The position numbers and the translations under genes are program-made. From Candidatus Omnitrophota bacterium (GTDB lineage Bacteria > Omnitrophota > Gorgyraeia > Gygaellales > Profunditerraquicolaceae): a stretch of 64,000 nt of DNA. The notes under the pieces were generated by a model. The model saw nothing but the letters and a program-made list of their open reading frames with translations, made no database searches and was not told the DNA's origin. The stretch is taken from contig JAPLLX010000004.1 of NCBI GenBank assembly GCA_026387335.1, forward strand, positions 255,045 through 319,044, given 5' to 3'. Positions 1-60,400 of this stretch are shown piece by piece (the first letter of the stretch is position 1; each line of letters begins with the position of its first letter).

Positions 1-655
1 GCTCTTTTTCTAACTCGGTATATTCTTCGTTGAGCTGAGCAAACTCGGCCTTAGGGACCCACTCGCTTATTTTTTCTTTTTTATTAAATTCCGTAATCTT
101 AGCTTCGTGAGCCTTAATCTCCTGAAGATGTTTTTCGATCTGATGTTTTTGTATCTCTATTTGTTCGGACTTCTCCCGGATGGTGTCTTCCAACTCCTTA
201 ATCCTGTTATTCAGCTCTCTTACGTCGCGCACGGCATTTACATTCTTGGTAAATTCACTCTGCAGCTCTTTTTCTTTTACGCCAAAGCTTTTTTTCAGCT
301 CGGCGTTTTCCGCCTTAACTTTATTCAGCATCTCCTCGGAGGTAGCCACCCACTCCTGCCTGCGCTTTAATTCTTGCTCCAGTTGCTCGTGTTTATTTAT
401 TGCCTCCTGAAACTGGGCCTTCTCTTTTTCATATTCGGATTTAGCCTTTTCAGCATCCACCTTTATGCTCTTGATTTCTTCCTCTAACCTTAATATTTTC
501 TTCTCTTTTAATTCGGACATGGGGCCATCCGCGGTAAGCCCGGCTTTCTTCTTGGCCTTCGGCGCTTGGCCCTGGCTCCCGGTAGAAAAGACCGAAAGGA
601 GGGCGTAGATAACCAGTCCCACTCCTGATACAAAGAGTATTATTATTAAAATCAT
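1..655 (-). CDS. membrane-anchored coiled-coil protein, N-terminus complete (ATG at 655-653), 3' end runs off the window
   Basis: Own minus-strand translation: MILIIILFVSGVGLVIYALL (TM helix), then more than 190 aa of K/E-rich coiled-coil-like sequence with no stop down to position 1. Absent from the ORF track only because it is truncated by the window edge. Confidence 0.45.
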   Translation of the reverse strand, partial: MILIIILFVSGVGLVIYALLSVFSTGSQGQAPKAKKKAGLTADGPMSELKEKKILRLEEEIKSIKVDAEKAKSEYEKEKAQFQEAINKHEQLEQELKRRQEWVATSEEMLNKVKAENAELKKSFGVKEKELQSEFTKNVNAVRDVRELNNRIKELEDTIREKSEQIEIQKHQIEKHLQEIKAHEAKITEFNKKEKISEWVPKAEFAQLNEEYTELEKE

Positions 656-8202: not shown

Positions 8203-8206
8203 TCAA

Positions 8207-8290: not shown

Positions 8291-8296
8291 GCAATT

Positions 8297-8971: not shown

Positions 8972-8983
8972 TTTAATATTCTA

Positions 8984-9054: not shown

Positions 9055-9059
9055 AAAAA

Positions 9060-9602: not shown

Positions 9603-9605
9603 AAA

Positions 9606-9815: not shown

Positions 9816-9818
9816 TCC

Positions 9819-28187: not shown

Positions 28188-29448
28188 GGGCGGCAGAGTA
28201 GTCGACCCGGCGAATAAAATTGATGCGCTAATGGATATATTAGTGGAAGATTCTAAGATATCCAAAGTAGCTAAAAATATTCAAGGCGCAGCGGATAAGA
28301 TAATTGATGCGTCGGGCAAAATTGTTCTGCCGGGACTTGTAGATATGCATGTGCATTTGCGGGAGCCGGGCAGGGAAGATAAAGAAACAATCTGCAGCGG
28401 CTCAAAGGCTGCTTTAGCCGGCGGAGTGACTAGTGTCCTGGCCATGCCCAATACCTCTCCGGCAATAGACTCAAAAGAAAATATTAAAATTATAAAAACA
28501 GCTATCCAAAAAAGCGCCAAGGCCAATTGTTTCATCTGCGCCGCTATTACTAAAGGAAGGCTAGGAGAAGAGTTAAGCGATTTCGCCAGCCTTAAAAAAG
28601 AAGGCGCGATTGCCCTCTCTGATGACGGCTCGTCGGTAGATAAGGACGCCCTTATGCTGGAGGCGTTTAAGCAAGCCAAAAAAGAGGATATTCTGGTAAT
28701 CTGCCATAGCGAAGATAAAAAGCTGGCAGCTGGCGGGGTAGTAAATTTAGGTTTTACTTCTACGCGTCTGGGGTTGCGCGGCATATCAACCGAGTCAGAA
28801 TATAAAAGGGTTGAGCGCGACATAAGGTTAGCTAAAGAAACCGGCGCCAGGGTGCATATTGCCCACGTAAGCTGCCAAGAATCGCTGGAAATTATTGCCC
28901 GGGCCAAAAAAAATAAGGTCAGGGTTACCTGCGAGAGTGCGCCGCATTATTTTACTTTTAATGAAGAAGCGGTCTTAGGTTATGATCCTAATTTTAAAAT
29001 GAACCCGCCGCTACGCTCTAAAGAGGATATGTTGGCTATCCGTAAAGGTTTGGCCGACGGTTTAATAGACGTGATCGCCTCAGATCACGCTCCGCATACT
29101 GAAAATGAAAAGGATATTGAGTTTGAACGCGCGGAATGCGGGGTAATCGGCTTAGAAACCGAATTAGCCGCAGCTATCACAGAGTTGATAGGCAATAACT
29201 TATTGGACTGGAGTAAACTGGTCCTCAAAATGTCGTTAAATCCCAGCCGGATTTTAGGCCTGAATAAAGGGACATTAAGCGTCGGCGCTGACGCGGATAT
29301 TATAGTAGTTGACCCTGAAAGAGAATGGGTAGTAAAAAAAGAAAATTTCTATTCCAAGTCTAAAAACTCATCTTTTATCGGCCGTTCGCTTAAGGGTTTT
29401 GTAGAATACACGCTTTGCCAAGGTAAGGTGCACAAATGGAATTCATAG
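28171..29448 (+). CDS. pyrC: dihydroorotase
   Basis: LPGLVDMHVHLREPG metal-binding motif, DHAPH; 425 aa. Confidence 0.9.
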   Translation: MKTLIKGGRVVDPANKIDALMDILVEDSKISKVAKNIQGAADKIIDASGKIVLPGLVDMHVHLREPGREDKETICSGSKAALAGGVTSVLAMPNTSPAIDSKENIKIIKTAIQKSAKANCFICAAITKGRLGEELSDFASLKKEGAIALSDDGSSVDKDALMLEAFKQAKKEDILVICHSEDKKLAAGGVVNLGFTSTRLGLRGISTESEYKRVERDIRLAKETGARVHIAHVSCQESLEIIARAKKNKVRVTCESAPHYFTFNEEAVLGYDPNFKMNPPLRSKEDMLAIRKGLADGLIDVIASDHAPHTENEKDIEFERAECGVIGLETELAAAITELIGNNLLDWSKLVLKMSLNPSRILGLNKGTLSVGADADIIVVDPEREWVVKKENFYSKSKNSSFIGRSLKGFVEYTLCQGKVHKWNS

Positions 29449-31757
29449 CCGATTTTCATGTCCATTCTAAATACTCGCGGGCTACCAGCCGCAATATGGA
29501 TGTCAAGAATTTAAGCGAATGGGCGAAGTTAAAAGGAATCACCCTTATAGGCACGGGAGATTTTACGCATCATTTGTGGCTGGAAGAACTAAAACACACC
29601 TTAGAAGATTGCGGGAATGGGTTATACCAGCATAATGGGGTCTATTTTATCCTGACTGCCGAGGTAAGCAGCATATATTCCAAAAAAAATAAAACCTACC
29701 GCATACACAATGTCATCATCGCTCCATCATTTAAAACCGTGGATAAAATAAATGACAAACTCGGCCGGCTGGGCAACCTGGCCAGCGACGGAAGGCCTAT
29801 CTTAGGGCTGGATGCCGCAGAACTGGCGCGGATTGTCTTTGGTATTGATGAAAACTGTATACTTGTCCCCGGGCATATCTGGACGCCCTGGTTTTCCCTC
29901 TTTGGCTCTATGTCAGGGTTTGACAGGATAGAAGATTGCTTTGAAGAGCAGACACCGAAAATATTTGCTTTGGAAACGGGCCTGTCTTGTTATGATGAAA
30001 AAACAGAGGTTTTAACTGAAAATGGCTGGAAGAAGTTCCCTGAAGTCAGCTATTCCGATAAAATTTGCACTTTGAATATTAAGACCGATAGAATTGAATT
30101 TCAAATTCCGCAAAGAATTTCTAATTATATTTATAAAGGGAAAATGTATAAACTCAGAACTAAAAGAGTAGATTTATTGGTAACCCCTAATCATAAGCTA
30201 CTATATAGCCCCTGCGATTTTAGAAACCGTAAGCCTTATTCTTTGAAAGAAGCAGAAAAGTTATTTAATAAATCCAAAATATTGAAAAAAGACGGTATCT
30301 GGATTGGAGAGAAACCAAAATATTTTACACTACCCGAAGTTAAAATGCAGCATGGTAGTAGATATTATTCCGGATTTCGTAATAAAAAAGAAAATCGCTT
30401 ACCTCTAAAACCCTGGCTAAAGTTTTTTGGTTTCTGGCTTGCAGAGGGCTGGACTAGCGAAGGCAAAGAGGGTGATTACAACGTTTGTGTATGTAACAAT
30501 GATGAAAATTTACTTAATGAAATGAAACAACTTCTTGAGTGCTTCGGTTATAAAGCTTATAAACGAGGTAACTTGGTTCGGGTGAGAGATTTTCAGTTAT
30601 TTCATTATTTAAGACAGTTTGGTAAATGTTATGATAAATTTATTCCATTGAATATTAAATCTCTCTCGAAAGAATTGTTAGAGATTCTATTACAATACTA
30701 TATTAAAGGGGACGGGCATATTTACGGAAGATCTGGAAAGGGTTTATCGGCAACAACCACCTCAATTCGTTTGCGTGACGATTTACAGGAGATAGCCCTA
30801 AAAATAGGGATTTCTGCGTATTACAAATTAGGCCAGAAAAAAGGTACCCCATTTTCTTCGCCCAGCACAAAAAAGATATACAAACAAAGAAACGATGCCT
30901 GGATTATTTATTTTATAAGGCGGAATAAACCAATAATTTTACCCTCAACAATAAAAAAACATAATTATACAGAAAAATGGGTAGATTACGAAGGATGGGT
31001 TTTCTGCGTTACTGTTCCTAATCATGTAATTTATATTCGCAGAAACGGTATTCCTCTTTGGTGCGGTAATTCCGACCCAGCAATGAATTGGCGCTTGAGC
31101 GCTTTAGATAAGTTTACCTTAATTTCCAATAGTGATGCACATTCACCGCAAAAAATTGGACGTGAGGGCAATGTCTTTGACTGCGAGCTTGATTATAAAA
31201 CAATAAGAGAAGTTTTAAAGACAAAAGATAAGAAACGGTTTTTATACACCATAGAGTTTTTCCCGGAAGAGGGGAAGTATCATTTTGACGGGCACCGGCT
31301 TTGCGGTATCCGTTGGTCGCCGAAGGAAACAAAAGAACACGCTGGCAAGTGCCCAAAATGCGGTAAGCCGGTTACTGTCGGGGTAGTGAACCGTGTAGAA
31401 AAATTAGCCGATAGGCCGCAAGGTTTTAAGCCCGAGAACGCCATACCTTTTAAACATTTAATACCTTTGGATGAAATAATCGCCGATGCCAAAGGCGTAG
31501 GCAAAACCAGTGTTGCGGTAGAAAGAGATTACCGGAGTTGCCTGAGTAAATTTGGGACAGAGTTTGAAATCCTGATGGCTGCTCCCAAGCAGGATCTGCT
31601 TAAAGGTTTACCTCCTAAAGTTGCGGAGGGGGTTCTAAGAGTACGTGAAGGTAAAGTCGATATTCAGGCTGGCTACGATGGCGAATATGGAATAATCTCT
31701 ATCTTTGGGAAGGAAGAGCCTGGCCAGAAAAACGAAGAACAATTGAGTTTATTTTAA
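29436..31757 (+). CDS. endonuclease Q (EndoQ-like PHP-domain DNA nuclease) interrupted by an intein. Host protein is residues 1-184 plus 546-773 (412 aa).
   Basis: N-extein DFHVHSKYSRATS...LIGTGDFTHHLW...ETGLS; C-extein SDPAMNWR...LISNSDAHSP...CGIRWSPKETKEHAGKCPKCG (Zn-ribbon), as in archaeal EndoQ; 773 aa in total. Confidence 0.8.
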   Translation: MEFIADFHVHSKYSRATSRNMDVKNLSEWAKLKGITLIGTGDFTHHLWLEELKHTLEDCGNGLYQHNGVYFILTAEVSSIYSKKNKTYRIHNVIIAPSFKTVDKINDKLGRLGNLASDGRPILGLDAAELARIVFGIDENCILVPGHIWTPWFSLFGSMSGFDRIEDCFEEQTPKIFALETGLSCYDEKTEVLTENGWKKFPEVSYSDKICTLNIKTDRIEFQIPQRISNYIYKGKMYKLRTKRVDLLVTPNHKLLYSPCDFRNRKPYSLKEAEKLFNKSKILKKDGIWIGEKPKYFTLPEVKMQHGSRYYSGFRNKKENRLPLKPWLKFFGFWLAEGWTSEGKEGDYNVCVCNNDENLLNEMKQLLECFGYKAYKRGNLVRVRDFQLFHYLRQFGKCYDKFIPLNIKSLSKELLEILLQYYIKGDGHIYGRSGKGLSATTTSIRLRDDLQEIALKIGISAYYKLGQKKGTPFSSPSTKKIYKQRNDAWIIYFIRRNKPIILPSTIKKHNYTEKWVDYEGWVFCVTVPNHVIYIRRNGIPLWCGNSDPAMNWRLSALDKFTLISNSDAHSPQKIGREGNVFDCELDYKTIREVLKTKDKKRFLYTIEFFPEEGKYHFDGHRLCGIRWSPKETKEHAGKCPKCGKPVTVGVVNRVEKLADRPQGFKPENAIPFKHLIPLDEIIADAKGVGKTSVAVERDYRSCLSKFGTEFEILMAAPKQDLLKGLPPKVAEGVLRVREGKVDIQAGYDGEYGIISIFGKEEPGQKNEEQLSLF
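29988..31070 (+). mobile_element. intein (361 aa) with LAGLIDADG homing-endonuclease domain, inserted in the EndoQ ETGLS|SDP motif
   Basis: Block A CYDEKTEVLTENGW, block B VTPNHKLLY, DOD motifs FFGFWLAEGWTS and LLQYYIKGDGHIYG, block G VFCVTVPNHVIYIRRNGIPLWCGN followed by +1 Ser. Removing it restores a contiguous EndoQ motif. Confidence 0.8.
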
Positions 31758-38676: not shown

Positions 38677-39522
38677 ATGAATATAGATGAAATAGAATTT
38701 GTAATTTTTGACACTGAAACCACCGGCCTTGATCCGTCTTCCGGGGATAGGATAGTGGAGTTGGCGGCTTTAAAATTTAAAGGCCTGGAAAAAATATCTG
38801 AGTTTCAGGCGTTGGTCAACCCGGGTAAGCCTGTATCCGAGGCAGCCTTTGCGGTCAATAAAATCAGCGCCGAGATGCTCAAAGACGCGCCCCAGCCCGA
38901 AACAGTAATCCCTAAATTTCTAGATTTTATTCAGGGTTCTTGCGTTTGTTCTTACAATGCCTGTTTTGACCTGGAATTTTTAAATAATGAATTAAAAGTT
39001 TTAAACCTGCCGGCGTTAAAAGATATCCTGATAATTGACGCGCTGAAGATGGCCAAGCGCGTTCTTCCGGGCTTAGAGCGTTACGCGCTCTGGTTTGTCG
39101 CGGATACCCTGGGTATAAAAATAAAGCAACAGCATCGGGCGTTCTCCGACGTAGAACTGACCTTAGCTGTCTTTAATAAATTAAAGGATATCCTTAAGAC
39201 CAAGGGCATAACAGATTTCAATAAATACCTTGGGTTATTTAGCGTTAATCCCGCGTTGCTGGAAAATATTAATAACCAAAAGATCGCCCAGATCCAGGAA
39301 GCTTTAAACTTAAGGGCGCAGATTAAAATTGAATATATTTCTGTTTCCAGCGCCCAGGTTACCCGGCGCGAGGTGGTCCCGAAAGAAATTAAACGCGAGA
39401 ACGGCAAAGACTATTTAGTGGGTTACTGCTGCCTGAAGCGCCAGGAGCGCTCGTTTCGGGTTGATAATATATTGCATATAGAGATCGTTAATGAAAACAC
39501 TGGAAATCAAGCTTCCTTTTAA
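38677..39522 (+). CDS. DnaQ-like DEDD 3'-5' exonuclease fused to a C-terminal WYL-like domain
   Basis: Exo I FVIFDTETTGL, Exo III HRAFSDVELT; C-terminal ~90 aa contain ERSFRVDNILHIEI, resembling the WYL motif. Confidence 0.7.
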   Translation: MNIDEIEFVIFDTETTGLDPSSGDRIVELAALKFKGLEKISEFQALVNPGKPVSEAAFAVNKISAEMLKDAPQPETVIPKFLDFIQGSCVCSYNACFDLEFLNNELKVLNLPALKDILIIDALKMAKRVLPGLERYALWFVADTLGIKIKQQHRAFSDVELTLAVFNKLKDILKTKGITDFNKYLGLFSVNPALLENINNQKIAQIQEALNLRAQIKIEYISVSSAQVTRREVVPKEIKRENGKDYLVGYCCLKRQERSFRVDNILHIEIVNENTGNQASF

Positions 39523-40564
39523 GCTTAAAAAATCGGTTTTGGCCTTAGGCCCGCAGACCAAGAATACGATTTGTTGGGCTAAGGCGGATAGAGCCTGGGT
39601 CAGTCCGCTACACGGAGATTTAAGTATACACAAAAGCCTATCTGATTTTGAAAGATGCGCAAAGTATTTTCTAAAAAAACGCCCTAAAATTATTGCCTGC
39701 GATTTACATCCGGAGTATCAGTCAACCCGCTACGCTTTTTCCCTACAGAATAGATACCTCATCCGGCCTATCCAACACCACCACGCCCATATCGCTTCCT
39801 GCATGGCGGAAAATGGGTTAAAGAACCAAAAGATAATCGGCGTAGCTTTTGACGGGACCGGCTTAGGCGTGGACAACACTATATGGGGAGCGGAATTTTT
39901 ACTCTGTGATTATAAAAATTTTTCCCGCGGGGCGCATTTAAAAGAAATCCCACTCGTGGGAGGAGAACGCGCCATATTAGAGCCGAGAAGGTTGGTGGCG
40001 GCCTGGCTTAATTTTGATCAGGCAATAGATAAAAAGCAGTTATTCCGGAAAATATACCTCTGCGGGATAAATTCTCCCTTAGCTAGCAGCATGGGCCGGT
40101 TATTTGATGCTGCCGGGAGCCTTATTTTAGGTAAAGAAAAAGCAAAATTTGAGGCAGAATTGGCGATTGAGCTGGAAAAACTAGCCGCCAAAAATTATCT
40201 TAAAACTGCAGGTTATAAGTTTAAAATTAGCAAATCCCCAGAGGGCTATATTTTAGACCCGTCCGGCATTTTTAAACAGATAGTCAGGGATTTAAAAGCG
40301 AAGAAACCCCGGGAGCAGATCGCCCAAAAGTTTCACGCGACAGTAGCGCAAATGATTTTAAAGACCTGTTTAATCTTAAGGCGGCAAAGTAAGATCAATA
40401 AGGTTGTTTTATCCGGAGGGGTATTCCAAAATAAACTTTTACTTAGTATCTGTTTAGACTTATTATATAAGCAAGGTTTTAAAGTTTTTACGCATCAGCA
40501 GTTGTCTTGTAATGACGCGGGCGTTTCTTTGGGACAGGCCGTTATTAGCGGCTATAGAGGTTAA
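39491..40564 (+). CDS. hypF: HypF-like carbamoyltransferase, Kae1/YgjD-like C-terminal domain only (no acylphosphatase, Zn-finger or YrdC domains)
   Basis: IQHHHAHIASCMAENG and VAFDGTGLGVDNTIWGAEFL are HypF Kae1-domain motifs; followed by hypC and hypD; only 357 aa. Confidence 0.7.
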   Translation: MKTLEIKLPFKLKKSVLALGPQTKNTICWAKADRAWVSPLHGDLSIHKSLSDFERCAKYFLKKRPKIIACDLHPEYQSTRYAFSLQNRYLIRPIQHHHAHIASCMAENGLKNQKIIGVAFDGTGLGVDNTIWGAEFLLCDYKNFSRGAHLKEIPLVGGERAILEPRRLVAAWLNFDQAIDKKQLFRKIYLCGINSPLASSMGRLFDAAGSLILGKEKAKFEAELAIELEKLAAKNYLKTAGYKFKISKSPEGYILDPSGIFKQIVRDLKAKKPREQIAQKFHATVAQMILKTCLILRRQSKINKVVLSGGVFQNKLLLSICLDLLYKQGFKVFTHQQLSCNDAGVSLGQAVISGYRG

Positions 40565-40567: not shown

Positions 40568-40777
40568 ATGTGTTTAGGCATACCCATGAAGATCAGAAAG
40601 ATCAACGCTGATTTTGCCGAGGTTGAATCCGGTAGGCTCTTGCGTAATATCAATATCCAGATGCTCTCCGGGTTAAAATTGGGGGATTATGTCTTGGTTC
40701 ACGCCGGTTTTGCCATCCAAAAAGTTGACCCGGCCCGGGCCAAAGAAACTTTGAGGATAGTCGATGAAATACGTTGA
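40568..40777 (+). CDS. hypC: hydrogenase maturation factor HypC
   Basis: N-terminal MCLGIP, GDYVLVHAGFAIQKVD; 69 aa. Confidence 0.85.
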   Translation: MCLGIPMKIRKINADFAEVESGRLLRNINIQMLSGLKLGDYVLVHAGFAIQKVDPARAKETLRIVDEIR

Positions 40778-41852
40778 TGAATTCCGTTCTCCCCGGCTGG
40801 TTGAGAAAATCGCCGCTAAGATTACCGCGCTAAACCCCGGGAAGAATATTAATATTATGGAAGTCTGCGGAACGCATACGCATAATTTCTTCCGTTTCGG
40901 GTTAAATAAGCTCTTACCTAAAAATATAAGATTAATTTCCGGGCCGGGTTGCCCGGTTTGCGTAAGCCCGCAGGCCTACATTGATGCCGCTATTGAACTA
41001 GCCAAAAACAAAAATATCATTATCGCTACTTTCGGCGATATGCTGCGCATACCCGGAAGCGCGTCCAGCCTGGAAAAAGAAAAAGCGAAATCCGGAAACG
41101 TGGTTGTGGTATACTCTCCACTGGACGCGGTTAGATTGGCTGCCGCTAATCCGGATAAAAAAATAGTATTTTTAGCGGTAGGGTTTGAGACTACCGCTCC
41201 GGCAATAGCCTTAAGCGTCCTGGCCGCCAAAAATGGTAAGCTCAAGAATATCTCTTTTTTTTCCGCGTTAAAACTGATCCCGGCGGCTATTGCTTATTTA
41301 TTGCTGGATAAACGGCTTAAAATAGACGGCTTTTTGTGCCCCGGGCATGTCTCAGCAATCATCGGGACAAAAGATTACGCATTTATCCCGAAAAAATACC
41401 AGATAGCTTGTTGCGTTACGGGATTTGAGCCGGTGGATATTTTGGAAGGGGTATATATGATCCTTGAGCAGATAGTCCGGCATAAACCCTATGTCGCCAA
41501 TCAATATTTGCGCATAGTCACTAAGGCGGGGAATACAAAAGCCAAGAAAATAATGAAGAGGGTTTTTAAAATAAGCGATTCTAACTGGCGCGGTTTTGGG
41601 ATAATAGCGGATAGCGGCCTGGAGTTAAGAAAAGAATTTGCGAGCTTGAACACCGCGCAAGTTTTTCCTCTCCGCTTAAAGAGCAAATCAAAATTCGCCA
41701 GGCTTTGCAGATGCGCGGATATCTTAAAGGGGCTTATTTCCCCGACCAGCTGCTTATTGTTTGCTCGCCGCTGCAGACCGGATAGCCCAATAGGCCCGTG
41801 TATGGTTTCAAGTGAGGGCGCGTGTAATGCTTATTACAGGTTCAGGAACTAA
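40764..41852 (+). CDS. hypD: hydrogenase maturation factor HypD
   Basis: CGTHTH, GPGCPVCV, FETTAP motifs; 362 aa. Confidence 0.88.
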   Translation: MKYVDEFRSPRLVEKIAAKITALNPGKNINIMEVCGTHTHNFFRFGLNKLLPKNIRLISGPGCPVCVSPQAYIDAAIELAKNKNIIIATFGDMLRIPGSASSLEKEKAKSGNVVVVYSPLDAVRLAAANPDKKIVFLAVGFETTAPAIALSVLAAKNGKLKNISFFSALKLIPAAIAYLLLDKRLKIDGFLCPGHVSAIIGTKDYAFIPKKYQIACCVTGFEPVDILEGVYMILEQIVRHKPYVANQYLRIVTKAGNTKAKKIMKRVFKISDSNWRGFGIIADSGLELRKEFASLNTAQVFPLRLKSKSKFARLCRCADILKGLISPTSCLLFARRCRPDSPIGPCMVSSEGACNAYYRFRN

Positions 41853-47206: not shown

Positions 47207-48214
47207 ATGCTGACCAAAAGAATATTGCTTGGGCACGGAAGCGGCGGAAGACTGACCCATAACCTCATAAAAGAGGTCTTGCTTAAGAAGTTAAATAATC
47301 CCATCCTTAGGGAACTCTCCGATAGCGCCGTCATCGACTATAAAGAAAAAATCGCTTTTACCACGGATTCTTTTGTAGTCAGCCCGTTATTTTTCCCCGG
47401 CGGGGATATTGGAAAACTGGCGGTAACCGGCACGCTAAATGACCTGGTCATGCTGGGGGCTATCCCGGAGTATCTTTCTTTAGCTTTAATTATGGAAGAA
47501 GGGCTTGATCAGGCTATTTTAGAAAAGATAATTTCTTCCATATCTTTTTACGCCAAAAAATCCGGGGTCAGCATTGTTACCGGAGATACGAAAGTAGTAG
47601 AGAGAGGCGCCGTAGATAAATTATTTATCAACACCTCCGGGATAGGCCGGCTTGTATCCACGAAAAGGCTTTGTTTAAAAAATATCGCGCCGCGGGATTT
47701 AATCATCATCACCGGTAATATCGCCGAGCACGGCTTAAGCGTGTTGGCTAAAAGAAAGGAACTGGATTTAGGATTTAACATTAAAAGCGATTGCAATCCT
47801 TTAAACGGATTAATCATCCCGCTTTTAAAAAAATGCCCGGGAGTAAAATTTATGCGCGACCCCACCCGCGGAGGTGTCGCTACAACCTTAAATGAAGTCG
47901 CCGAGGGTACAAATCTGGGCGTAGTCATCAACGAGAAAGATATTCCGGTTTCCGCAAAGGTCAGGGTTGCCTGCGAGCTATTAGGCATAGACCCCTTATA
48001 TGTCGCTAACGAAGGAAAAGCGTTATTAGTGGTTGATCCTAAAGAGGCCGCTAGAATCGTCCGTTTTTTACGAAGGCACCCGTTAGGCCGCCGCTCAAAA
48101 ATCATCGGCGAAATAGTCAAAGAACCCCAGGGCAGGTTATTACTGCGTACTGTTTTTAACGCGGAACGCGTTTTAGATATGTTGACCGCGCAAACTTTAC
48201 CGAGGATATGTTAA
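47207..48214 (+). CDS. hypE: hydrogenase maturation carbamoyl dehydratase HypE
   Basis: LLGHGSGG N-terminus, PurM-like fold, C-terminal PRIC (the cysteine that carries the carbamoyl/cyano group); 335 aa. Confidence 0.88.
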   Translation: MLTKRILLGHGSGGRLTHNLIKEVLLKKLNNPILRELSDSAVIDYKEKIAFTTDSFVVSPLFFPGGDIGKLAVTGTLNDLVMLGAIPEYLSLALIMEEGLDQAILEKIISSISFYAKKSGVSIVTGDTKVVERGAVDKLFINTSGIGRLVSTKRLCLKNIAPRDLIIITGNIAEHGLSVLAKRKELDLGFNIKSDCNPLNGLIIPLLKKCPGVKFMRDPTRGGVATTLNEVAEGTNLGVVINEKDIPVSAKVRVACELLGIDPLYVANEGKALLVVDPKEAARIVRFLRRHPLGRRSKIIGEIVKEPQGRLLLRTVFNAERVLDMLTAQTLPRIC

Positions 48215-49065: not shown

Positions 49066-49095
49066 GGCTCTTTAGCAGATTAAGAGCCTTTTTTT
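49066..49095 (+). terminator. intrinsic terminator-like hairpin 8 nt upstream of the Ddl-like operon start codon (possible attenuator)
   Basis: GGCTCTT-tagcagatt-AAGAGCC followed by TTTTTTT; a sigma70-like promoter TTGACA-16-ATAAAA lies at 48959-48986. Confidence 0.5.
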
Positions 49096-49103
49096 ATAAT
49101 AAT

Positions 49104-50090
49104 ATGAAAATAGTCGGATTAACCTACGATTTAAGGACAGATTACCAGTTTAAAGAAGGCGATCCTCTGGATGCCAACGCCGAATTTGACCATCCTTCAA
49201 CTATCGACGTTATTGCTGACGCCATTGCGGCCAACGGTTTTAAAGTAGAACGCATCGGGAATGCCGGAAATCTTCTGGATAAGATCTCTTCTTTAAAAGT
49301 AGATATAGTCTTTAATATTTCCGAAGGTCTTACCGGAAGGAACCGGGAATCACAGGTCCCTATTCTGCTGGAAATGGCCGGTATCCCATTTGTGGGAGCA
49401 GACGCCTTGACCCTGGGCCTGACTTTAGATAAGGTGATGGCCAAGAAGATTTTTATCTCCGAGAAGATTCCCACCCCGAAATTTTTTGAAGTCAGTTCGG
49501 TCGGCGAGCTGACCAATCTTAACCATCATAAGTTCCCGTTAATAGTCAAGCCGCGCTTTGAGGGTTCTTCCAAGGGTTTAAGCGAGAGTTCCCGGGTAGA
49601 AACCAGAGAAGAGTTGGCTAAGCAGGTTGAGTATGTTATAAGCGCCTATAAACAACCGGCATTAGTGGAAGAATTTATCTCCGGCCAGGAGTTCACCGTA
49701 GCTTTAGTCGGAAACGATCCGGTTGAAGTCCTTCCGATTGTCCAGATCAAGATTGACGGGAGGTTAAAATTAAACGACAAGTTCTATACTTTTGCCCGGA
49801 TCACTTCGGATAGATTAGAATATATCTGTCCCGCGAAGATCTCCAAGGAGTTAAAGAAAACAATCGACAAGTTGGCCCTAAAGACTTATAAGTCGGTAGA
49901 GTGCCGGGATTTCGGCCGGGTGGATTTCCGCGTGGATAATGAAGGCAATCCTTATGTCTTAGAGATTAACCCTCTGCCCTCACTTTCTACGGAAGATGTA
50001 TTTATGCTGTTGGCGAAAAATATCGGCATAACTTATGAGCAGATGATCGGGAAAATCTTAAACAGCGCGATCAAGAGGCATAATCTTTAA
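49104..50090 (+). CDS. D-alanine--D-alanine ligase family ATP-grasp enzyme (short, atypical), paralogue 1
   Basis: VDIVFNISEGLTGRNRESQVPILLEMAGIPFVGADALTLGLTLDKVMAKKIF aligns with the Ddl N-terminal/central domain; ATP-grasp C-domain ...EINPLPSL; 328 aa. Confidence 0.7.
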   Translation: MKIVGLTYDLRTDYQFKEGDPLDANAEFDHPSTIDVIADAIAANGFKVERIGNAGNLLDKISSLKVDIVFNISEGLTGRNRESQVPILLEMAGIPFVGADALTLGLTLDKVMAKKIFISEKIPTPKFFEVSSVGELTNLNHHKFPLIVKPRFEGSSKGLSESSRVETREELAKQVEYVISAYKQPALVEEFISGQEFTVALVGNDPVEVLPIVQIKIDGRLKLNDKFYTFARITSDRLEYICPAKISKELKKTIDKLALKTYKSVECRDFGRVDFRVDNEGNPYVLEINPLPSLSTEDVFMLLAKNIGITYEQMIGKILNSAIKRHNL

Positions 50091-50094: not shown

Positions 50095-51096
50095 ATGAAA
50101 ATAGCTTTGACTTATAACCTGAAGCAAAAAGACGAAAGCAAACCGGCGGATTATTTTTCGGAGTGCGACAGCGCGGATACGATCAACGCGATTACCAACG
50201 CTATCCGAAAAAAAGGCCATGATGTTGAAGCTATAGACGTGGAATACCCAAAGCTGCTCTCTTATTTCCGAAAAAATTCCGTGGATATGGTTTTTAATAT
50301 TGCCGAGGGCAAATCCGGGAAGTTCCGCGAATCGGAAGTGCCGGCAATCCTGGATTATCTGAATATCCCCTATACAGGCTCGGATACCTTCTCCCTAGCT
50401 TTAGCTTTAAATAAAGCCATTACCAAAAAAATCCTCAAAGCGGAAAATATCCCCACGCCGAATTTTCAACTTTTCATAAAAGGAAACGAAGAGCTGGATC
50501 CAGCGTTAAGGTTCCCATTAATAGTCAAGCCGAATTGCGAGGGTTCCGCCAAAGGTATCTCTAAGGCCAATGTGGTGAGTAATTCTAAGGACCTGTATAA
50601 GAGGGTGAGAGAGACGTTAGAAGTTTATAATCAGGAGGCCTTAGCCGAAGAATTTATTGAAGGCAAAGAGCTTACTGTCGGGATATTAGAAAACGGCAAG
50701 ACAAAAGCCCTGCCGATTTTAGAGATAGATTTCTCTACCTGTAAGAATAGCGGAGAATATTTTTATTCCTGGAAGATGAAGGAGTATCAGGGGGATAAAG
50801 ATCTAGGGTTAGTCCCGGCCTTTCATTGCCCGGCGCGGCTGGATAAAGATATTGAGGAGCGGGTTAAAGAAGTGGCGCTGAGGACTCACCGCGCGATTGG
50901 CTGCGCGGACATCTCGCGCACCGATATCCGTTTGGATAAATTTAATGTTCCGTATGTGTTAGAGATAAACCCCTTGCCGGGATTAGACCCCAAAGAATCC
51001 AACTTTCCGATTATGGCTTACGCCGCCGGGATGAAATATGAAGATCTTATTGAGGCAATAATCTTGAGCGCCTCAGAAAGGAAAGGGCTAAATTGA
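50095..51096 (+). CDS. D-alanine--D-alanine ligase family ATP-grasp enzyme, paralogue 2
   Basis: Same architecture as the upstream gene (VDMVFNIAEGKSGKFRESEVPAILDYLNIPYTGSD ... EINPLPGL); 333 aa. Confidence 0.7.
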   Translation: MKIALTYNLKQKDESKPADYFSECDSADTINAITNAIRKKGHDVEAIDVEYPKLLSYFRKNSVDMVFNIAEGKSGKFRESEVPAILDYLNIPYTGSDTFSLALALNKAITKKILKAENIPTPNFQLFIKGNEELDPALRFPLIVKPNCEGSAKGISKANVVSNSKDLYKRVRETLEVYNQEALAEEFIEGKELTVGILENGKTKALPILEIDFSTCKNSGEYFYSWKMKEYQGDKDLGLVPAFHCPARLDKDIEERVKEVALRTHRAIGCADISRTDIRLDKFNVPYVLEINPLPGLDPKESNFPIMAYAAGMKYEDLIEAIILSASERKGLN

Positions 51097-52280
51097 GTAA
51101 CGTACAGGCAATTGAAAACCAGAAATTGCAGCAGGAGAGTTCTCCTGTAGTACGCAGTACCAAGAAACCGCGCGATTATCAGCAGATAGCAATTTATAAA
51201 GATGTCAATCCTCTGGATTGGGAAGATTGGCATTGGCAGATAAAAAACAGGATTTGTTCTAAAGATATTTTAGCGCAGATTATAAATTTAACTCCCGATG
51301 AGGAGAAAGGTATTGATAAGGCCAAAGGAAGATTATCCATGGCCATAACTCCTTATTGGGGAACGTTGCTTGATCCGGAAGACGCCGATTGCCCTCTAAG
51401 GCGCCAGGCTGTCCCGGTGGTCCAGGAATTAATGATTTCTCCCCATGAAATGACTGATCCTTGCGCGGAAGACCGGGATTCTCCGGCCCCGCACCTGGTG
51501 CATCGTTACCCGGACAGGGTTCTATTATTGGCTACAGACCACTGCGCAATGTACTGCCGCCACTGCACGCGCCGGCGCCTGGTCGGAGACCATGGAGAAA
51601 AAGATTCTAATTCTCCGGATAGGTTTGATGCCGCTATAGAATATATAAAAGCTAACCGTAAAATAAGGGACGTGTTAATATCCGGAGGCGACCCGTTAAC
51701 CCTGGAAGACGAGGAATTGGATGATCTGCTCGGAAAAATCCGCTCTATATCCCACATAGAATTCTTACGGCTGGGTACGCGCATACCCGTCACGCTTCCG
51801 CAGCGCATTACGGAAAACTTGGTGAATATAATGAAAAAATATTCGCCGCTTTGGGTAAGCATTCATTTTAACCATCCGAAAGAGATAACCAAACGCGCTA
51901 AGATCGCCTGCGATATGTTAGCGGAAGCCGGGATTCCTTTGGGCAGCCAGACTGTGCTTTTAAAAGGGATTAACGACCGGCCGTATATAATGAAAAAACT
52001 GGTCCACGAATTACTGCAGATTAGAGTCAGGCCGTATTATATTTATCAATGCGATCCTGTGCGGGGGACCCAGCATTTCCGGACCCCGGTTGCCGTCGGG
52101 ATCAATATTATGGAAAAATTACGCGGGCATACTTCCGGCTACGCTGTCCCGACTTATGTCATTGACGGTCCGGGAGGCGGCGGGAAAATACCCGTCGGGC
52201 CGAATTATATTCTTTCCCAGGCCAAGGGAAAGTACGTCCTGCGTAACTACAAAGGCAAGATCTATACCTACCTGGAATAA
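51093..52280 (+). CDS. kamA: lysine 2,3-aminomutase family radical SAM enzyme (KamA/EpmB-like)
   Basis: CAMYCRHCTRRR radical-SAM cluster motif in KamA context, PLP-binding region; 395 aa; start overlaps the upstream stop. Confidence 0.8.
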   Translation: MSNVQAIENQKLQQESSPVVRSTKKPRDYQQIAIYKDVNPLDWEDWHWQIKNRICSKDILAQIINLTPDEEKGIDKAKGRLSMAITPYWGTLLDPEDADCPLRRQAVPVVQELMISPHEMTDPCAEDRDSPAPHLVHRYPDRVLLLATDHCAMYCRHCTRRRLVGDHGEKDSNSPDRFDAAIEYIKANRKIRDVLISGGDPLTLEDEELDDLLGKIRSISHIEFLRLGTRIPVTLPQRITENLVNIMKKYSPLWVSIHFNHPKEITKRAKIACDMLAEAGIPLGSQTVLLKGINDRPYIMKKLVHELLQIRVRPYYIYQCDPVRGTQHFRTPVAVGINIMEKLRGHTSGYAVPTYVIDGPGGGGKIPVGPNYILSQAKGKYVLRNYKGKIYTYLE

Positions 52281-52334: not shown

Positions 52335-54290
52335 ATGGATGTCAGGAATAAACGAAATTTTATCCTTTTAGGGCATGCTCAGTCCGGCAAGACCACACTC
52401 GCGGAGAGCATGCTTTATTTCTCTAAGGCCACCACCCGTAAAGGCAAAGTTGAAGATGGGACGACTGTCAGTGACTACAGCTTTGACGAGATAGAAAAGA
52501 AAAATTCCATCAATTTAAGCCTGCTCTTTTGTGAATATCAGGGTAACCAGATCCAGATTGTGGATACACCCGGTTACGCGGATTTCTTCGGTGAGGTTGT
52601 CGCCGGGGCCCGCGCGGTAGATAGCGCTCTTATTGTGGTGGACGCCACAGCCGGTGTCCAGGTAGGGACTGAGCGCGCCTGGGATATCGCCCAGGAAAAT
52701 AACCTTCCCTGCATGATTTTTATCAATAAGATGGATAAAGAAGGCGCGGATGTGAATAAGGTTTTAGCGGACCTAAAATCCAGCCTTTCCAAAAATTGCG
52801 TAATCATAGAATCTTTGGAAGACCCGCTTTTAATGGAAGCAATCGCTGAGAGCGACGACAGCCTTTTGGAAAAATACCTGGCGGTTTTAAGGCTCTCCCT
52901 GGAAGAGATAAAAAGCGGTCTGGCTCAGGCAGTTATGCAACGTAAGCTCTTCCCCGTTGTGGTTGGTTCGGCGCTTACCGATAAAGGGATTAAAGATTTG
53001 CTGGACGATGTTTTACAATATCTGCCCAGTCCTCTGGATAGGGCTCCCGTAATAGCGGATAATCCGTTAAAAACGGGTGAGAAAAAAGAAGTTATTTTAA
53101 AAGAAGAGGCGTCTTTCTCAGCGTTTGTCTTTAAGAATATTTCAGACCCTTTTGTCGGCCAGCTTACGTTGTTGCGCGTTTTTTCCGGCATGCTTGCGGC
53201 AAATTCGGGTTTTTACAACGTAAGCCGCAGTCTTAAAGAAAGAATAGGACCGATATATTTTCTGCAGGGCAAGGGTGAACGCCAAGTGGACAGCGCGCAT
53301 TGCGGGGATATTGTCGCTATCGCTAAATTAAAGAATACGGGAGTCTCGGATTCGCTGGCGCAGGAAAAAGAGCAGTTTTTATTTGAGCCGATTGTTTTCC
53401 CCGAGCCGGCGATATCAGCGTCGGTCAAGCCCAAATCCCGCGAGGACGAAGAAAAAATTTCTGACGCCTTGCATAAACTGGCGGCGGAAGACCATACGTT
53501 CGGGGTCAGGCACGACCCGCAGACCAAAGAGTTGGTTGTTTCCGGGCTGGGCGACTTGCACTTAGCGGTTATGGTCGGCAGGATGAAAAAAAGATTTAAT
53601 GTCGCGGTGGATTTAGGCACGCCGAAAGTATCCTATAAAGAGACGATCTCTAAAAGCGCTAAGGTGCAGGGTAAATTCAAGCGCCAATCCGGCGGTCGCG
53701 GCCAATACGGAGATTGCTGGTTAGAGGTAAGCCCTTTAGGACGGGGCAAGGGCCTGGAGTTCGTAGATAAGATAGTCGGAGGGGCAATACCGCGCAATTT
53801 TATTCCTTCGGTGGAAAAAGGCGTGCGCCAGGCTTCCTTAGAAGGCGCGGTCGCGGGTTACCCCATTGAAGATATCCGGGTGACTTTAGTTGACGGTTCA
53901 TACCATGAGGTGGACTCTTCGGATATGGCTTTTCAAATCGCCGGGGCGATGGCTTTACGCAAGGCGGTTATGGAAGCCGGCCCGGTATTATTAGAGCCGA
54001 TAATGGATATTGAGATATATATTCCGGAAGAATGCCTGGGAACGATTTCCGGAGATATTAATTCCCGCCGGGGCAGGATCATGGGTATGGAGATAAAAGG
54101 CAAACAACAGGTAGTCAAAGTGCAGGCGCCGCTAGCGGAGATGTTTAAGTACGCCAATGACCTGCGTTCAATAACCGCGGGCAAAGGCTCTTACACAATG
54201 CGTTTTTCGCATTACGAAGAAGTGCCGCATAAGTTTGCCGCATCAATAATCACTCAATATCAAGCCACCAAAAAACAGGAAGAACAATAA
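52335..54290 (+). CDS. elongation factor G paralogue with Tyr in place of the switch II catalytic His
   Basis: G1 GHAQSGKTTL, G3 DTPGYADF (canonical DxPGHxDF), G4 NKMD; full five-domain EF-G length of 651 aa. Confidence 0.75.
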   Translation: MDVRNKRNFILLGHAQSGKTTLAESMLYFSKATTRKGKVEDGTTVSDYSFDEIEKKNSINLSLLFCEYQGNQIQIVDTPGYADFFGEVVAGARAVDSALIVVDATAGVQVGTERAWDIAQENNLPCMIFINKMDKEGADVNKVLADLKSSLSKNCVIIESLEDPLLMEAIAESDDSLLEKYLAVLRLSLEEIKSGLAQAVMQRKLFPVVVGSALTDKGIKDLLDDVLQYLPSPLDRAPVIADNPLKTGEKKEVILKEEASFSAFVFKNISDPFVGQLTLLRVFSGMLAANSGFYNVSRSLKERIGPIYFLQGKGERQVDSAHCGDIVAIAKLKNTGVSDSLAQEKEQFLFEPIVFPEPAISASVKPKSREDEEKISDALHKLAAEDHTFGVRHDPQTKELVVSGLGDLHLAVMVGRMKKRFNVAVDLGTPKVSYKETISKSAKVQGKFKRQSGGRGQYGDCWLEVSPLGRGKGLEFVDKIVGGAIPRNFIPSVEKGVRQASLEGAVAGYPIEDIRVTLVDGSYHEVDSSDMAFQIAGAMALRKAVMEAGPVLLEPIMDIEIYIPEECLGTISGDINSRRGRIMGMEIKGKQQVVKVQAPLAEMFKYANDLRSITAGKGSYTMRFSHYEEVPHKFAASIITQYQATKKQEEQ

Positions 54291-54308
54291 GATAAGGAGT
54301 AGTGTATA

Positions 54309-55010
54309 GTGAAGATTAGTGTAATCGGACTGCCCGGCTTAAACCCCGGAAAACATAATATTAAGGATTCTCGTCTTGATCAAGTGGATAGCATAACTAA
54401 AGCCAAGAAGAGGACCTACATTCAAGTTGAAGTCGTTTCCGAAAACGGGGCAATAGACGCGGACGCGATTTTAGTCGTCAAAAATTCATCCTCGGACGTA
54501 ATCTTAAAAGACCTGGAATTTGTGGAGACGCGGCTGGCGCGGGCCACCGAGGAAGCGGAAAAGAATTTATTTAACAAACTAAAGGGCATACTGGAAAAAG
54601 AGGAATTTATCTCCCGCGCGGCTTTAAACCCCGACGAGAAAAAAGAATTGGTTAAATACGGTTTACTTAGCGCTAAACCGGTTATTGTCGCTAGCGAGCA
54701 AGACCTGGAAGACCAAAACAGTTTATTACTCAGGGCCTTAAAAGAGGGAGGCTTTCTGAGCTTTTTTACAACCGGCGAAAAAGAGACCCGGGCCTGGCTT
54801 ATAAGATGTGGAGATACTGCCTGGGTCGCTTCGGGCGCGATACATTCGGATATACAGCAGGGTTTTATCCGGGCCGAAATTATCGCTTTCCAGGATTTTA
54901 TGGAATGCGGTGGTGAATCCAAGGCTAAGCAGGCGGGTAAAATGCGCCTTGAGCCCAAAGAATACATCATGCAGGACTGTGATCTGGCAAACTTTCGGTT
55001 TAATAAATAG
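54309..55010 (+). CDS. YchF/Obg-like ATPase paralogue with degenerate P-loop and truncated G domain but intact C-terminal TGS domain
   Basis: N-terminal ISVIGLPGLNPGKHN versus canonical GIVGLPNVGKST; DSRLDQVDSI aligns with YchF DPRLDQLAEI; C-terminal TGEKETRAWLIRCGDTAWVASGAIHSDIQQGFIRAEI...GKMRLEPKEYIMQDCDLANFRFN matches the YchF TGS domain; 233 aa versus about 360 for YchF. Confidence 0.65.
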   Translation: MKISVIGLPGLNPGKHNIKDSRLDQVDSITKAKKRTYIQVEVVSENGAIDADAILVVKNSSSDVILKDLEFVETRLARATEEAEKNLFNKLKGILEKEEFISRAALNPDEKKELVKYGLLSAKPVIVASEQDLEDQNSLLLRALKEGGFLSFFTTGEKETRAWLIRCGDTAWVASGAIHSDIQQGFIRAEIIAFQDFMECGGESKAKQAGKMRLEPKEYIMQDCDLANFRFNK

Positions 55011-55022: not shown

Positions 55023-56537
55023 ATGGTGAAGATTAAACGGGCGTTGATCAGCGTATCGGATAAAACAGGAATATTAGATTTCGCGAAAGAGTTAAATAAA
55101 TTCGGCGTGGAAATCCTCTCTACGGGTGGCACGGCAAAATTATTGCGCGAAAATAATATTCCGGTAAAAGAAGTATCCGAATATACGGGATTTCCGGAGA
55201 TGCTTGACGGCCGGGTTAAAACGCTGCATCCCAAAATACACGGCGGGCTTCTGGCTTTGCGGGATAACCCCGAGCATATGGCTACGCTCAAAGATCATGG
55301 TATCGGTTTAATCGATATGGTAGCGGTAAATCTTTATCCGTTTGAAAAAACCACCCAAAAACCCGGGGTAGCGATAGAAGAGGTGATTGAAAATATTGAT
55401 ATCGGCGGGCCGTCCATGCTGCGCTCCGCCGCTAAAAATCACCGCTCAGTAGCGGTTATCTGTAATCCGGGAAGGTACCCCCAGGTCATCGAAGAATTAA
55501 AGAAAAATAACGGCTGCCTGCCGGATAGCCTTTTACGCGATTTAGGCATTGAAGTTTTTAGCCGCACATCCCAATACGATGGAGCGATATTTGCGTATCT
55601 TAACAAATGGAATAACGGCTCTAAAACAGCAGCAATAGGCATTTTCCCCGATACGCTTACTTTATCTTTTGAAAAAATTCAGGATTTACGTTACGGCGAG
55701 AATCCCCATCAAAAAGCAGCCTTCTACAAAGAAAAAGGGAAGTCGGTAGGGTTGATAAACCTTAAGCAATTACAGGGTAAAGAGTTATCTTTTAATAATA
55801 TATTGGATTTAAATGCCGCTTTGGAATTAGTGCGGGAATTCAGCCAACCAGCTGCGGTAATCGTCAAACATAATAATCCCTGCGGAGTGGCTGAAGATAA
55901 AACTCTGGAAAAAGCATTTTTATACGCCTGGAAGTGTGACCCGCTCTCCGCTTTCGGCGGAATTGTCGCTTTAAACCGTAAGCTGGATTTAAAAACCGCT
56001 AAAGTGATAGCTAAAAGTGGATTCTTAGAATGTATTATCGCTCCCGGGTTTGAACAGGAAACGCTAGAGTTATTTAAAGAAAAAAAGAATTTACGCATTT
56101 TGGAATTTTATGGCTTAGAGCCGATAAACGAGCCGGAGTTTAAACGCGTAAGCGGCGGGTTGTTACTCCAGGATAAAGATTTGGCGACCCTGGATTTAAA
56201 TAACCTGAAAGTGGTTACTAAAAGAAAGCCGACCAAGCAAGAGATGACTAGTTTGATTTTTGGTTGGAAAGTAGCCAAGCATGTAAAATCCAACGCCATT
56301 ATTTTAACCAAGGGGACTAGGGCCGTCGGCATCGGCGCGGGGCAGATGTCCCGGGTGGATTCAGTTATGATTGCTAAGAAAAAATCCGGCAAGTTAAGCG
56401 CCAATTCCTGTTTAGCTTCCGACGCCTTCTTCCCTAAGCCGGACGCTATTTCCTGGGCCCATAAAGCCGGCGCTAAAGCGATAATCCAGCCCGGCGGCTC
56501 AATCGCCGACCAGAATCCAGGCCTGCGACAAATATAA
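55023..56537 (+). CDS. purH: bifunctional AICAR formyltransferase / IMP cyclohydrolase
   Basis: MGS-like N-terminal domain (ALISVSDKTGI) plus AICARFT domain; 504 aa. Confidence 0.92.
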   Translation: MVKIKRALISVSDKTGILDFAKELNKFGVEILSTGGTAKLLRENNIPVKEVSEYTGFPEMLDGRVKTLHPKIHGGLLALRDNPEHMATLKDHGIGLIDMVAVNLYPFEKTTQKPGVAIEEVIENIDIGGPSMLRSAAKNHRSVAVICNPGRYPQVIEELKKNNGCLPDSLLRDLGIEVFSRTSQYDGAIFAYLNKWNNGSKTAAIGIFPDTLTLSFEKIQDLRYGENPHQKAAFYKEKGKSVGLINLKQLQGKELSFNNILDLNAALELVREFSQPAAVIVKHNNPCGVAEDKTLEKAFLYAWKCDPLSAFGGIVALNRKLDLKTAKVIAKSGFLECIIAPGFEQETLELFKEKKNLRILEFYGLEPINEPEFKRVSGGLLLQDKDLATLDLNNLKVVTKRKPTKQEMTSLIFGWKVAKHVKSNAIILTKGTRAVGIGAGQMSRVDSVMIAKKKSGKLSANSCLASDAFFPKPDAISWAHKAGAKAIIQPGGSIADQNPGLRQI

Positions 56538-60061: not shown

Positions 60062-60400
60062 ATGACGCATAAAAGCCAAGGTAAGTCATCACTAGGGATG
60101 GAAGCCAATATTGCCGCGCTCTTAAGCTACCTTTTGGGTTTTGTCTCCGGGATAATCTTTTACGCTTTAGAGAAAGAAAATAAGTTTGTGCGTTTCCACG
60201 CGATGCAATCGATCGTGGTTTTCGCGTTTTTATTTGTTTTAAACATGGTCGTAAAACTCTTACCTTTAATAGGTTGGACCATCTCCACTCTTTTGGGCAT
60301 AATAGGCATAGTCATCTGGGTTCTCCTTATGGTTAAAGCCTACAACGGAGAATATTTCAAACTGCCGGTTGCCGGAGAGATTGCCGAGAAAAACTCCTAA
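60062..60400 (+). CDS. DUF4870-family small membrane protein
   Basis: ANIAALLSYLLGFVSGIIFYALEKENKFVRFHAMQSIVVF pattern; 112 aa. Confidence 0.55.
   Translation: MTHKSQGKSSLGMEANIAALLSYLLGFVSGIIFYALEKENKFVRFHAMQSIVVFAFLFVLNMVVKLLPLIGWTISTLLGIIGIVIWVLLMVKAYNGEYFKLPVAGEIAEKNS

Follow-up and report, generated by a model that had tools for sequence, protein, structure and literature searches.

Directly behind a gene for a lysine aminomutase (KamA) homologue, the genome of Candidatus Omnitrophota bacterium (GenBank assembly GCA_026387335.1) carries a gene for a paralogue of elongation factor G (EF-G) and, next to it, a gene derived from the ATPase YchF. Both proteins depart from their canonical relatives at the catalytic site, which raises the question of what they are, whether they still use nucleotide, and whether KamA has anything to do with them. 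The stretch analysed, referred to as the window, comprises 64,000 nucleotides of contig JAPLLX010000004.1 (positions 255,045 to 319,044 of the forward strand), and its coordinates are counted from its first letter. The labels of identical and near-identical public proteins also point to Candidatus Omnitrophota. The best overall explanation, to which a probability of roughly 70% is assigned, is that the pair represents two accessory, co-transcribed derivatives of translation factors: an EF-G2 with low GTP turnover and a YchF derivative that acts independently of nucleotide. Both open reading frames (ORFs) lie where an earlier note on this DNA had placed them. The EF-G paralogue (52335..54290, +) has 651 residues, and its ATG start is preceded by the ribosome-binding site (RBS) GGAGAG. 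The YchF derivative (54309..55010, +) has 233 residues, and AAGGAG stands upstream of its GTG start.

The EF-G paralogue matches the five Pfam domains GTP_EFTU, EF-G_D2, EFG_III, EFG_IV and EFG_C, which correspond to domains G, II, III, IV and V. In a phmmer alignment, its G3/switch II segment DTPGYADF (residues 77-84; 52563..52586, +) falls on DTPGHVDF of S. aureus EF-G, and Tyr81 (codon TAC, 52575-52577) occupies the place of the catalytic His. The His-to-Tyr change that had been read from the sequence is confirmed in this way, and the His is not merely shifted. The G1/P-loop is GHAQSGKTT (52371..52397, +), with Gly as its first residue where canonical EF-G has AHIDAGKTT; G4 is NKMD (52725..52736, +), with guanine specificity retained, and G5 is present as GSAL. 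The earlier note was right that G1, G4 and all five domains are kept, and it missed two further changes. The switch I region (52470..52520, +), aligned to S. aureus EF-G, reads KKNSI in place of RGITI, with the Mg-binding Thr replaced by Ser and the gate Ile by Asn, and both Ile residues of the hydrophobic gate are changed. In addition, the G' subdomain has lost about 45-48 residues from its beta part, residue 165 aligning with S. aureus residue 213. The acidic G' helix LLMEAIAESDDSLLEKYL, which contacts L7/L12, is still there, as are the loops at the tip of domain IV that serve translocation, KRQSGGRGQYGD and DGSYHEVDSS.

These features are shared by the relatives of the protein. Of the 120 closest homologues, which are 74-100% identical and all carry Omnitrophota names, 117 have PGY, so Tyr81 is neither a sequencing error nor a chance substitution. 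G1 and G4 are conserved in the same 120 sequences, the G domain is no less conserved than the other domains, KKNSI is kept among orthologues, and Ser58 is invariant among them. The ratio of nonsynonymous to synonymous substitution rates (dN/dS) is 0.04-0.08 for the EF-G paralogue, a range that also covers the YchF derivative and is near the values for purH and KamA, with dS saturated. The AlphaFold2 (AF2) model of the EF-G paralogue reached a predicted local distance difference test (pLDDT) value of just 73.5, and a Foldseek search with this model did not separate the EFG I from the EFG II subfamily.

The subfamily was assigned from sequence comparisons. With the G domain alone as query, the best match among the sequences of the Protein Data Bank (PDB) is T. 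thermophilus EF-G-2 (1WDT, 123 bits), all others scoring 99 bits or less; 1WDT has DAPGYGDF and thus a Tyr at the equivalent site. The 150 nearest relatives, taken as the best matches from a scan of 1.84 billion cluster representatives (50% clusters), have Tyr at the catalytic-His site in 71 cases, Phe in 28 and His in 8, and just six of them are canonical proteins with AHxDAGKTT, RGIT and DTPGH. In a neighbour-joining (NJ) tree of 71 sequences, the paralogue lies within a large star-like clade of Tyr/Phe-type proteins (EFG II), apart from the His-type proteins. On the canonical EF-G model TIGR00484 it scores 638.7 bits, just below the cut-off of 659.4, and it carries GHAQSGKT, KKNSI and DTPGY in place of the canonical set AHxDAGKT, RGITI and DTPGH.

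The hallmarks described for EFG II are a G1 motif of the form GhxxxGKT, a G2 motif relaxed to xxxSx, retained G3-G5, a Leu after KTT, and a gene outside the str operon (Margus et al. 2011, PMC3150367). In the paralogue, GHAQSGKTT is followed by Leu22 and aligns with GHAGSGKTTL of 1WDT (Leu25). KKNSI aligns with RGITI and has Ser for the Mg-binding Thr, while DTPG, NKMD and GSAL represent G3-G5. The gene lies between kamA and purH, and an EFG I gene is present in the same genome. Model NF009381 (PRK12740.1-5) was set aside as evidence of EF-G2 membership because the canonical long EF-G of Omnitrophota also scores 800 bits on it. Judged by motifs, alignment and tree, the paralogue belongs to the known EFG II/EF-G2 subfamily, as an ordinary member. 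By the same comparisons, the His-to-Tyr replacement is the norm of this subfamily and not a novelty or a special loss, as it had first appeared. Since Tyr or Phe at the "catalytic His" is usual in this large subfamily, neither annotation pipelines nor readers should call it a unique lesion.

The paralogue is also not the housekeeping copy, as the earlier note had held. By its translation, the genome also has a gene for a canonical EF-G, which begins within the window: the 5' part of fusA, 218 codons, occupies 1..655 (-) and runs off the window start, which kept it out of the ORF list. It codes for a predicted N-terminal membrane helix and the beginning of a coiled-coil extension. The product of 655..1 is 96.8% identical to the N-terminus of a 1002-residue EF-G at positions 7307-10315 of a metagenome locus (L100:7307-10315), which scores 1047.8 bits on TIGR00484 (cut-off 659.4). 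Residues 307-996 of this ORF form a canonical EF-G with AHIDAGKTT, RGITI and DTPGHIDF. The EF-G2 paralogue is therefore not the only EF-G of the genome, and the statement that fusA, tufA and ychF are all missing from the window holds for tuf and ychF and fails for fusA; a search of the window for canonical tuf, rpsL, rpsG and ychF found none. The EF-G2 paralogue and the long canonical EF-G are 37-39% identical, and in the NJ tree the long EF-G of Omnitrophota groups with the His-type EFG I proteins.

The second gene of the pair has gone much further from its ancestor. Its product is annotated in the public record as a DUF933 domain-containing protein, and its sole Pfam match is the C-terminal TGS/DUF933 family PF06071 (111 bits). 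On the YchF model TIGR00092 it scores 126.7 bits against a cut-off of 279.2. The missing parts were mapped by aligning it with canonical YchFs from the fetched loci and with the E. coli YchF sequence. Approximately 130 residues have been lost through five internal deletions: 26 residues with the P-loop GKS/T and switch I, 18 with G3 and switch II, 19 with the catalytic-His segment (His114 in E. coli), 13 at the tip of the helical hairpin, and about 55 in the region after G4, including G5. G1, G2, G3 and G5 thus lie in deleted segments, and the G4 motif NVNE has become SEQD. The earlier note had correctly described a YchF-derived protein with a conserved TGS domain and about 130 residues missing, switch I and II among them. 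Its "degenerate P-loop" was a misreading, as the P-loop has been deleted: GLPGL pairs with GLPNV, and the GK of NPGKHN pairs with NTGVV of E. coli, downstream of switch I. Because G1 to G5 and the catalytic-His segment have been lost, the protein is predicted to be unable to bind or hydrolyse nucleotide in the YchF manner, in agreement with the earlier view that it is not a nucleoside triphosphatase.

What survives, according to the alignment and the AF2 model, is the YchF scaffold, a shortened helical hairpin and the TGS domain. The hairpin (54495..54608, +; helices 58-78 and 82-96 of the model) has a tip 13 residues shorter than in canonical YchF, and the TGS domain (54762..55010, +) is 55-64% identical to canonical YchF TGS domains. 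The AF2 model, built from 46 family members, has a pLDDT of 91.3. In Foldseek its TM-score normalised to the query (TMq) is 0.80 for 1JAL and 0.79 for E. coli YchF bound to the 50S subunit. Nearly all 120 listed homologues are 233 residues long, three differing by at most 7 residues. The protein was also followed through the 56 GTDB species loci (L009-L064) that form the synteny sample and are labelled Omnitrophota or, coarsely, "Planctomycetales": it has a full-length match in 54 of them, and in the other two the match is slightly shorter, once because the contig ends. Its dN/dS, at saturated dS, is 0.05-0.08, similar to that of purH and KamA. These sequence measures mark the YchF derivative as a maintained gene and not a remnant. 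It is conserved and previously undescribed, and it is the newer part of the pair. In three loci of other phyla (L066, L078 and L080; Aminicenantes and Clostridia), full-length YchF homologues have the unusual P-loop context MILTIFGYPKTGKT instead of GLPNVGKS, and the TGS domains of these homologues are closest (56-64%) to the Omnitrophota 233-residue protein.

Its TGS domain and what remains of the helical cleft would let the YchF derivative bind the ribosome or RNA, and there is about an even chance that it is a nucleotide-independent ribosome or RNA binder of this kind. E. coli YchF holds the 50S subunit mainly by its lysine-rich hairpin tip, whose lysines bind H62 of 23S rRNA; the same work describes the H114A mutant of YchF and discusses TGS-h5 contacts for RelA and Rbg1 (PMC11814078). 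As the hairpin tip is shortened in the derivative, the TGS domain is the more likely binding module. The protein can be regarded as a natural experiment, namely a universally conserved, ribosome-associated ATPase that has lost all its nucleotide motifs and yet stays constant in length, with strong purifying selection, in at least 56 species. It can show which functions of YchF need ATP and which need the TGS domain and the helical scaffold alone.

For the EF-G2 paralogue, the proposed mechanism combines a retained nucleotide pocket with an altered trigger. The protein keeps its guanine-nucleotide pocket (G1, G4 and G5), its acidic G' helix and the loops at the tip of domain IV, and it lacks the canonical activation triad, the His being replaced by Tyr and both gate Ile residues by others. 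Its most likely role would be that of an alternative, soluble EF-G: bound to the ribosome, it would support translocation at a slow rate or modulate translation while turning over hardly any GTP or none, beside the canonical EF-G encoded about 52 kb away. This role as a slow, low-GTPase ribosome binder is proposed by analogy with the EF-G2 proteins of M. smegmatis and B. thetaiotaomicron, and the same analogy makes a low GTPase activity likely. In M. smegmatis EF-G2 (MsmEF-G2) the residue corresponding to H88 is Y98 and the ribosome-dependent GTPase activity is minimal, while H88Y in EF-G1 nearly abolishes GTPase activity (bioRxiv 10.64898/2026.05.25.727771). The EF-G2 of B. thetaiotaomicron is reported to lack GTPase activity and to sustain slow translation. 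The factor appears to be dispensable in the phylum, since about half of the Omnitrophota species lack it at the locus (27 of 56).

Different degrees of activity have to be weighed against this picture. For T. thermophilus EF-G-2, GTP hydrolysis on the ribosome (PMC3150367) and activity in poly(Phe) synthesis have been reported, although the protein has a Tyr at the equivalent site; consequently, Tyr alone leaves the activity of the window protein unsettled and does not prove the loss of hydrolysis that the earlier note had assumed. If the Omnitrophota protein behaved in the same way, it would be a fully active second translocase that hydrolyses GTP on the ribosome independently of His, a true isoenzyme. 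Conserved G1, G4 and G5, the acidic G' helix, the domain IV loops, and domains II-V that are much like those of canonical EF-G are consistent with this. It is nevertheless considered possible rather than probable, given the effect of H88Y on M. smegmatis EF-G1, the near inactivity of the natural MsmEF-G2 with Tyr98, the alteration of RGITI in switch I and of both hydrophobic-gate residues, and the deletion of the G' beta part. A division of labour between EF-G paralogues, known in Borrelia, mitochondria and P. aeruginosa, would be another way to explain a second copy, which would then be a factor for ribosome recycling or ribosome protection (of the spdEFG2/mtEF-G2 or Tet(M)/FusB type) and not a translocase. 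Matches to Tet-type models exist and are weak: the scores of 326.6 and 238.4 bits fall far short of the cut-offs of 775 (NF012153) and 1100 (NF033148), and protection of the Tet(M) type was rejected on these curated thresholds. Moreover, mitochondrial and spd-type factors retain the catalytic His, their match reaches 341 bits against 577 for bacterial EF-G, and MsmEF-G2, the characterised Tyr-type relative, cannot recycle ribosomes, which makes a recycling or protection role improbable. That the missing catalytic residues and the large deletions of the YchF-like protein simply reflect decay, so that one or both genes would be functionless pseudogenes, is scarcely credible in view of the intact frames, the fixed length in 120 homologues and 56 species, the dN/dS of 0.04-0.08, the confident AF2 model of the YchF derivative, and the conserved motifs and RBSs. 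No frameshifts or stop codons were seen among the orthologues.

A further alternative would assign a direct role to KamA. The pair stands behind two tandem ATP-grasp ligases (49104-50090 and 50095-51096, both +) and the KamA homologue (51093-52280, +), with which the ligases are translationally coupled, and 53 of the 56 loci, L033 and L037 counted among them, share this ATP-grasp1-ATP-grasp2-KamA arrangement. KamA probably makes beta-lysine: its best match is the AblA-type lysine 2,3-aminomutase model (520.5 bits), and it retains Asp293 and Asp330, which bind the epsilon-amino group of lysine in 2A5H. A glutamate or an arginine aminomutase was rejected on the curated cut-offs and on these two residues. 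As some ATP-grasp enzymes, such as RimK and TTL, ligate amino acids to proteins, the three upstream genes could in principle add beta-lysine to EF-G2 or to the YchF derivative, much as EpmAB acts on EF-P, an analogy that the earlier note had drawn. It fails on the enzymes themselves. KamA is of the AblA type and not EpmB (242.4 bits on TIGR03821, cut-off 369.3), and neither the 45-60 kb part of the window nor the related loci contain an EpmA-like ligase or a gene resembling an aminoacyl-tRNA synthetase. The two ligases are Ddl-like, although below the Ddl cut-offs, and as such of the small-molecule type. The distribution of the genes also speaks against beta-lysylation, which is judged very improbable: 29 loci have EF-G2 in the place between KamA and the YchF derivative, and it is absent in 27, where KamA stays and directly precedes the YchF derivative with about 100 bp between them. 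In L007 and L022, KamA and EF-G2 are set apart by extra genes (three in L022), and KamA is absent upstream in L025, while a few short contigs do not cover it; in L033, L037 and L050, tblastn resolved just one ATP-grasp gene. The adjacency is unspecific because the whole block is syntenic. In tblastn searches of the 56 loci, it runs PAC2, HAD, (HypE-like, ApbE-like), ATP-grasp1, ATP-grasp2, KamA, EF-G2 where present, YchF derivative, purH, folC, mnmE and folE. The adjacency of KamA is best read as general synteny, and a part of the three upstream genes in protein modification is conceivable at most. Separately, a putative product containing beta-lysine can be expected of the KamA/ATP-grasp trio, which occurs in nearly all 56 species loci.

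Several points weigh against the reading of the pair as two accessory, co-transcribed factors, the EF-G2 with low GTP turnover. A sequence by itself cannot establish that the EF-G2 paralogue has lost its GTPase activity. Its domains II-V are nearer to canonical EF-G (491 bits, S. aureus) than to the characterised EF-G2s, and it may be a more competent translocase than these. The NJ tree is distance-based and carries no bootstrap values, and its EFG II part is star-like. For the YchF derivative, the hairpin tip that is 13 residues shorter may mean that the known mode of 50S binding has been lost. As for co-transcription, it is deduced from the short gaps (54, 18 and 12 bp), and promoter and terminator scans gave counts no higher than those in shuffled sequence.

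The three gaps belong to a same-strand run and lie around the EF-G2 and YchF derivative genes, the last of them before purH (55023..56537, +), which begins 12 bp downstream of the YchF derivative and is followed by folC, mnmE and folE. EF-G2, the YchF derivative, purH, folC, mnmE and folE probably form one transcription unit. The sole notable promoter-like site, TTAGCA-17-TATAAT at 49072-49100, lies upstream of the first ATP-grasp gene.

The canonical EF-G itself has an unusual form in this phylum. In one of the loci (L022), a second EF-G gene is represented by its 3' end, immediately before the first ATP-grasp gene, and a metagenome scan with the C-terminal fragment of its product (101 residues, L022:2-307) returned 80 loci. 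A homology search with this fragment gave pieces at contig ends and nothing else. L100, on a 476,057-bp JGI contig, carries pheT and a rarA-like gene followed by the 1002-residue EF-G ORF; the same two genes are found in the window at 2169-4187 (-) and 662-1972 (-), respectively. A YchF derivative of 98% identity (P0121) probably lies on the same contig as L100. Together with the copy at L100:7307-10315, copies from 31 further loci among L089-L168 were compared. The long EF-G of Omnitrophota has about 1000-1100 residues, an N-terminal extension of about 300-400 residues being present in 31 of 32 complete copies, and its neighbours are pheT and the rarA-like gene upstream and a uvrD-like helicase gene downstream. 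At the start of the extension stands a hydrophobic segment of about 20 residues, MILIIILFVSGVGLVIYALLSVF, with a Kyte-Doolittle mean over 19 residues of 1.9-2.9. K/R residues follow, and then a long E/K/Q-rich, coiled-coil-like region of about 300 residues with weak matches to coiled-coil families. Many public Omnitrophota contigs start or end within the long EF-G gene and annotate it as "elongation factor G, partial" (P0407-P0526); assembly breaks in this gene may lead to an undercounting of EF-G in metagenome-assembled genomes.

From its hydropathy, the N-terminal segment of the long EF-G is predicted to be a membrane anchor. If the anchor is real, the housekeeping translocase would be tethered and EF-G2 would be the soluble form, which changes the view of its role. 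The bacteria of this phylum are ultra-small and possibly host-dependent, and an anchored coiled-coil EF-G may be what is most unusual about their translation; to our knowledge, no membrane-anchored EF-G has been described. In a tblastn search of all Omnitrophota loci with E. coli S12, S7 and EF-Tu sequences, none of the three was found, which places the long EF-G outside the str operon in these loci. S12-S7-EF-G-EF-Tu operons have been reported in some Omnitrophota chromosomes (2026 preprint), so a third EF-G gene is possible.

A similar search concerned YchF. With four canonical YchFs as tblastn queries against 1.87 Mb of Omnitrophota loci, a sample biased to two loci, the 233-residue gene alone was found, and the hits of the pattern scan, a biased sample as well, contained no full-length YchF either. 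It is conceivable, though doubtful, that the 233-residue protein is the sole YchF-family gene throughout the phylum and a nucleotide-free pseudo-enzyme, that the canonical EF-G is tethered to the membrane, and that EF-G2, where carried, is the sole freely diffusing translocase. If true, two universal translation factors would have been rewired in Omnitrophota.

Some other genes of the window deserve mention. It contains dnaA, dnaN, gyrB and gyrA and a switch of GC skew near 14-16 kb, on account of which the replication origin is placed inside it. A 773-residue protein (29436-31757, +) contains an internal LAGLIDADG_3 domain, matched in two stretches of which residues 418-469 match best, and has flanks that look intein-like (...GLSCYDE... 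and ...WCGNSD). The gene for a free-standing LAGLIDADG endonuclease of 224 residues (8297-8971, -) has thrS and a flavoprotein gene as its neighbours. Genes for a Kae1-like protein that corresponds to the C-terminal part of HypF alone, for HypD and for a HypE-like protein are spread over 39491-40564, 40764-41852 and 47207-48214, and no hydrogenase structural genes were found in the window. A small membrane protein (60062-60400, +) is assigned to PF09685 (MamF/MmsF family) in the precomputed L001 gene table.

Compared with known systems, the YchF derivative is closest to YchF/OLA1 (E. coli 8KIE and H. influenzae 1JAL), with which it shares the core sheet of the G domain, the helical hairpin and the TGS domain (TMq 0.79-0.80). 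In the TGS domain it shares 55% identity with E. coli YchF. In contrast to YchF/OLA1, it has none of the G motifs, no catalytic-His segment and no lysine-rich hairpin tip, it has 233 residues instead of about 363, and it fails TIGR00092.

Among the EF-G2 proteins, that of B. thetaiotaomicron (8DMF/7UVP) is likewise an EF-G paralogue, reported to work without GTPase activity and to sustain slow translation. It is much more distant from the window protein (361 bits), which scores 488 on its model NF058620 against a cut-off of 1000. The loss of GTPase activity in B. thetaiotaomicron EF-G2 is reportedly attributed to a region unique to that protein. M. smegmatis EF-G2 (9K0Z/9K10) shares the His-to-Tyr change, the lack of conservation in those residues of the P-loop and of switch I that touch the sarcin-ricin loop, and the position of an accessory factor beside a canonical EF-G1. 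It differs in its lower overall similarity (421.6 bits) and its more divergent P-loop (GPSGG), and a stress-related role has been proposed for the mycobacterial protein only. T. thermophilus EF-G-2 (1WDT/2DY1), the founding member of EFG II, has the Tyr in DxPGYxDF, the P-loop GHxxSGKTT, the Leu after KTT and a switch I other than RGITI, and its gene also lies outside the str operon and coexists with EFG I. It keeps about 45 G' residues that are missing from the window EF-G2, whose domains II-V are closer to canonical EF-G. Finally, GTP hydrolysis has been reported for T. thermophilus EF-G-2.

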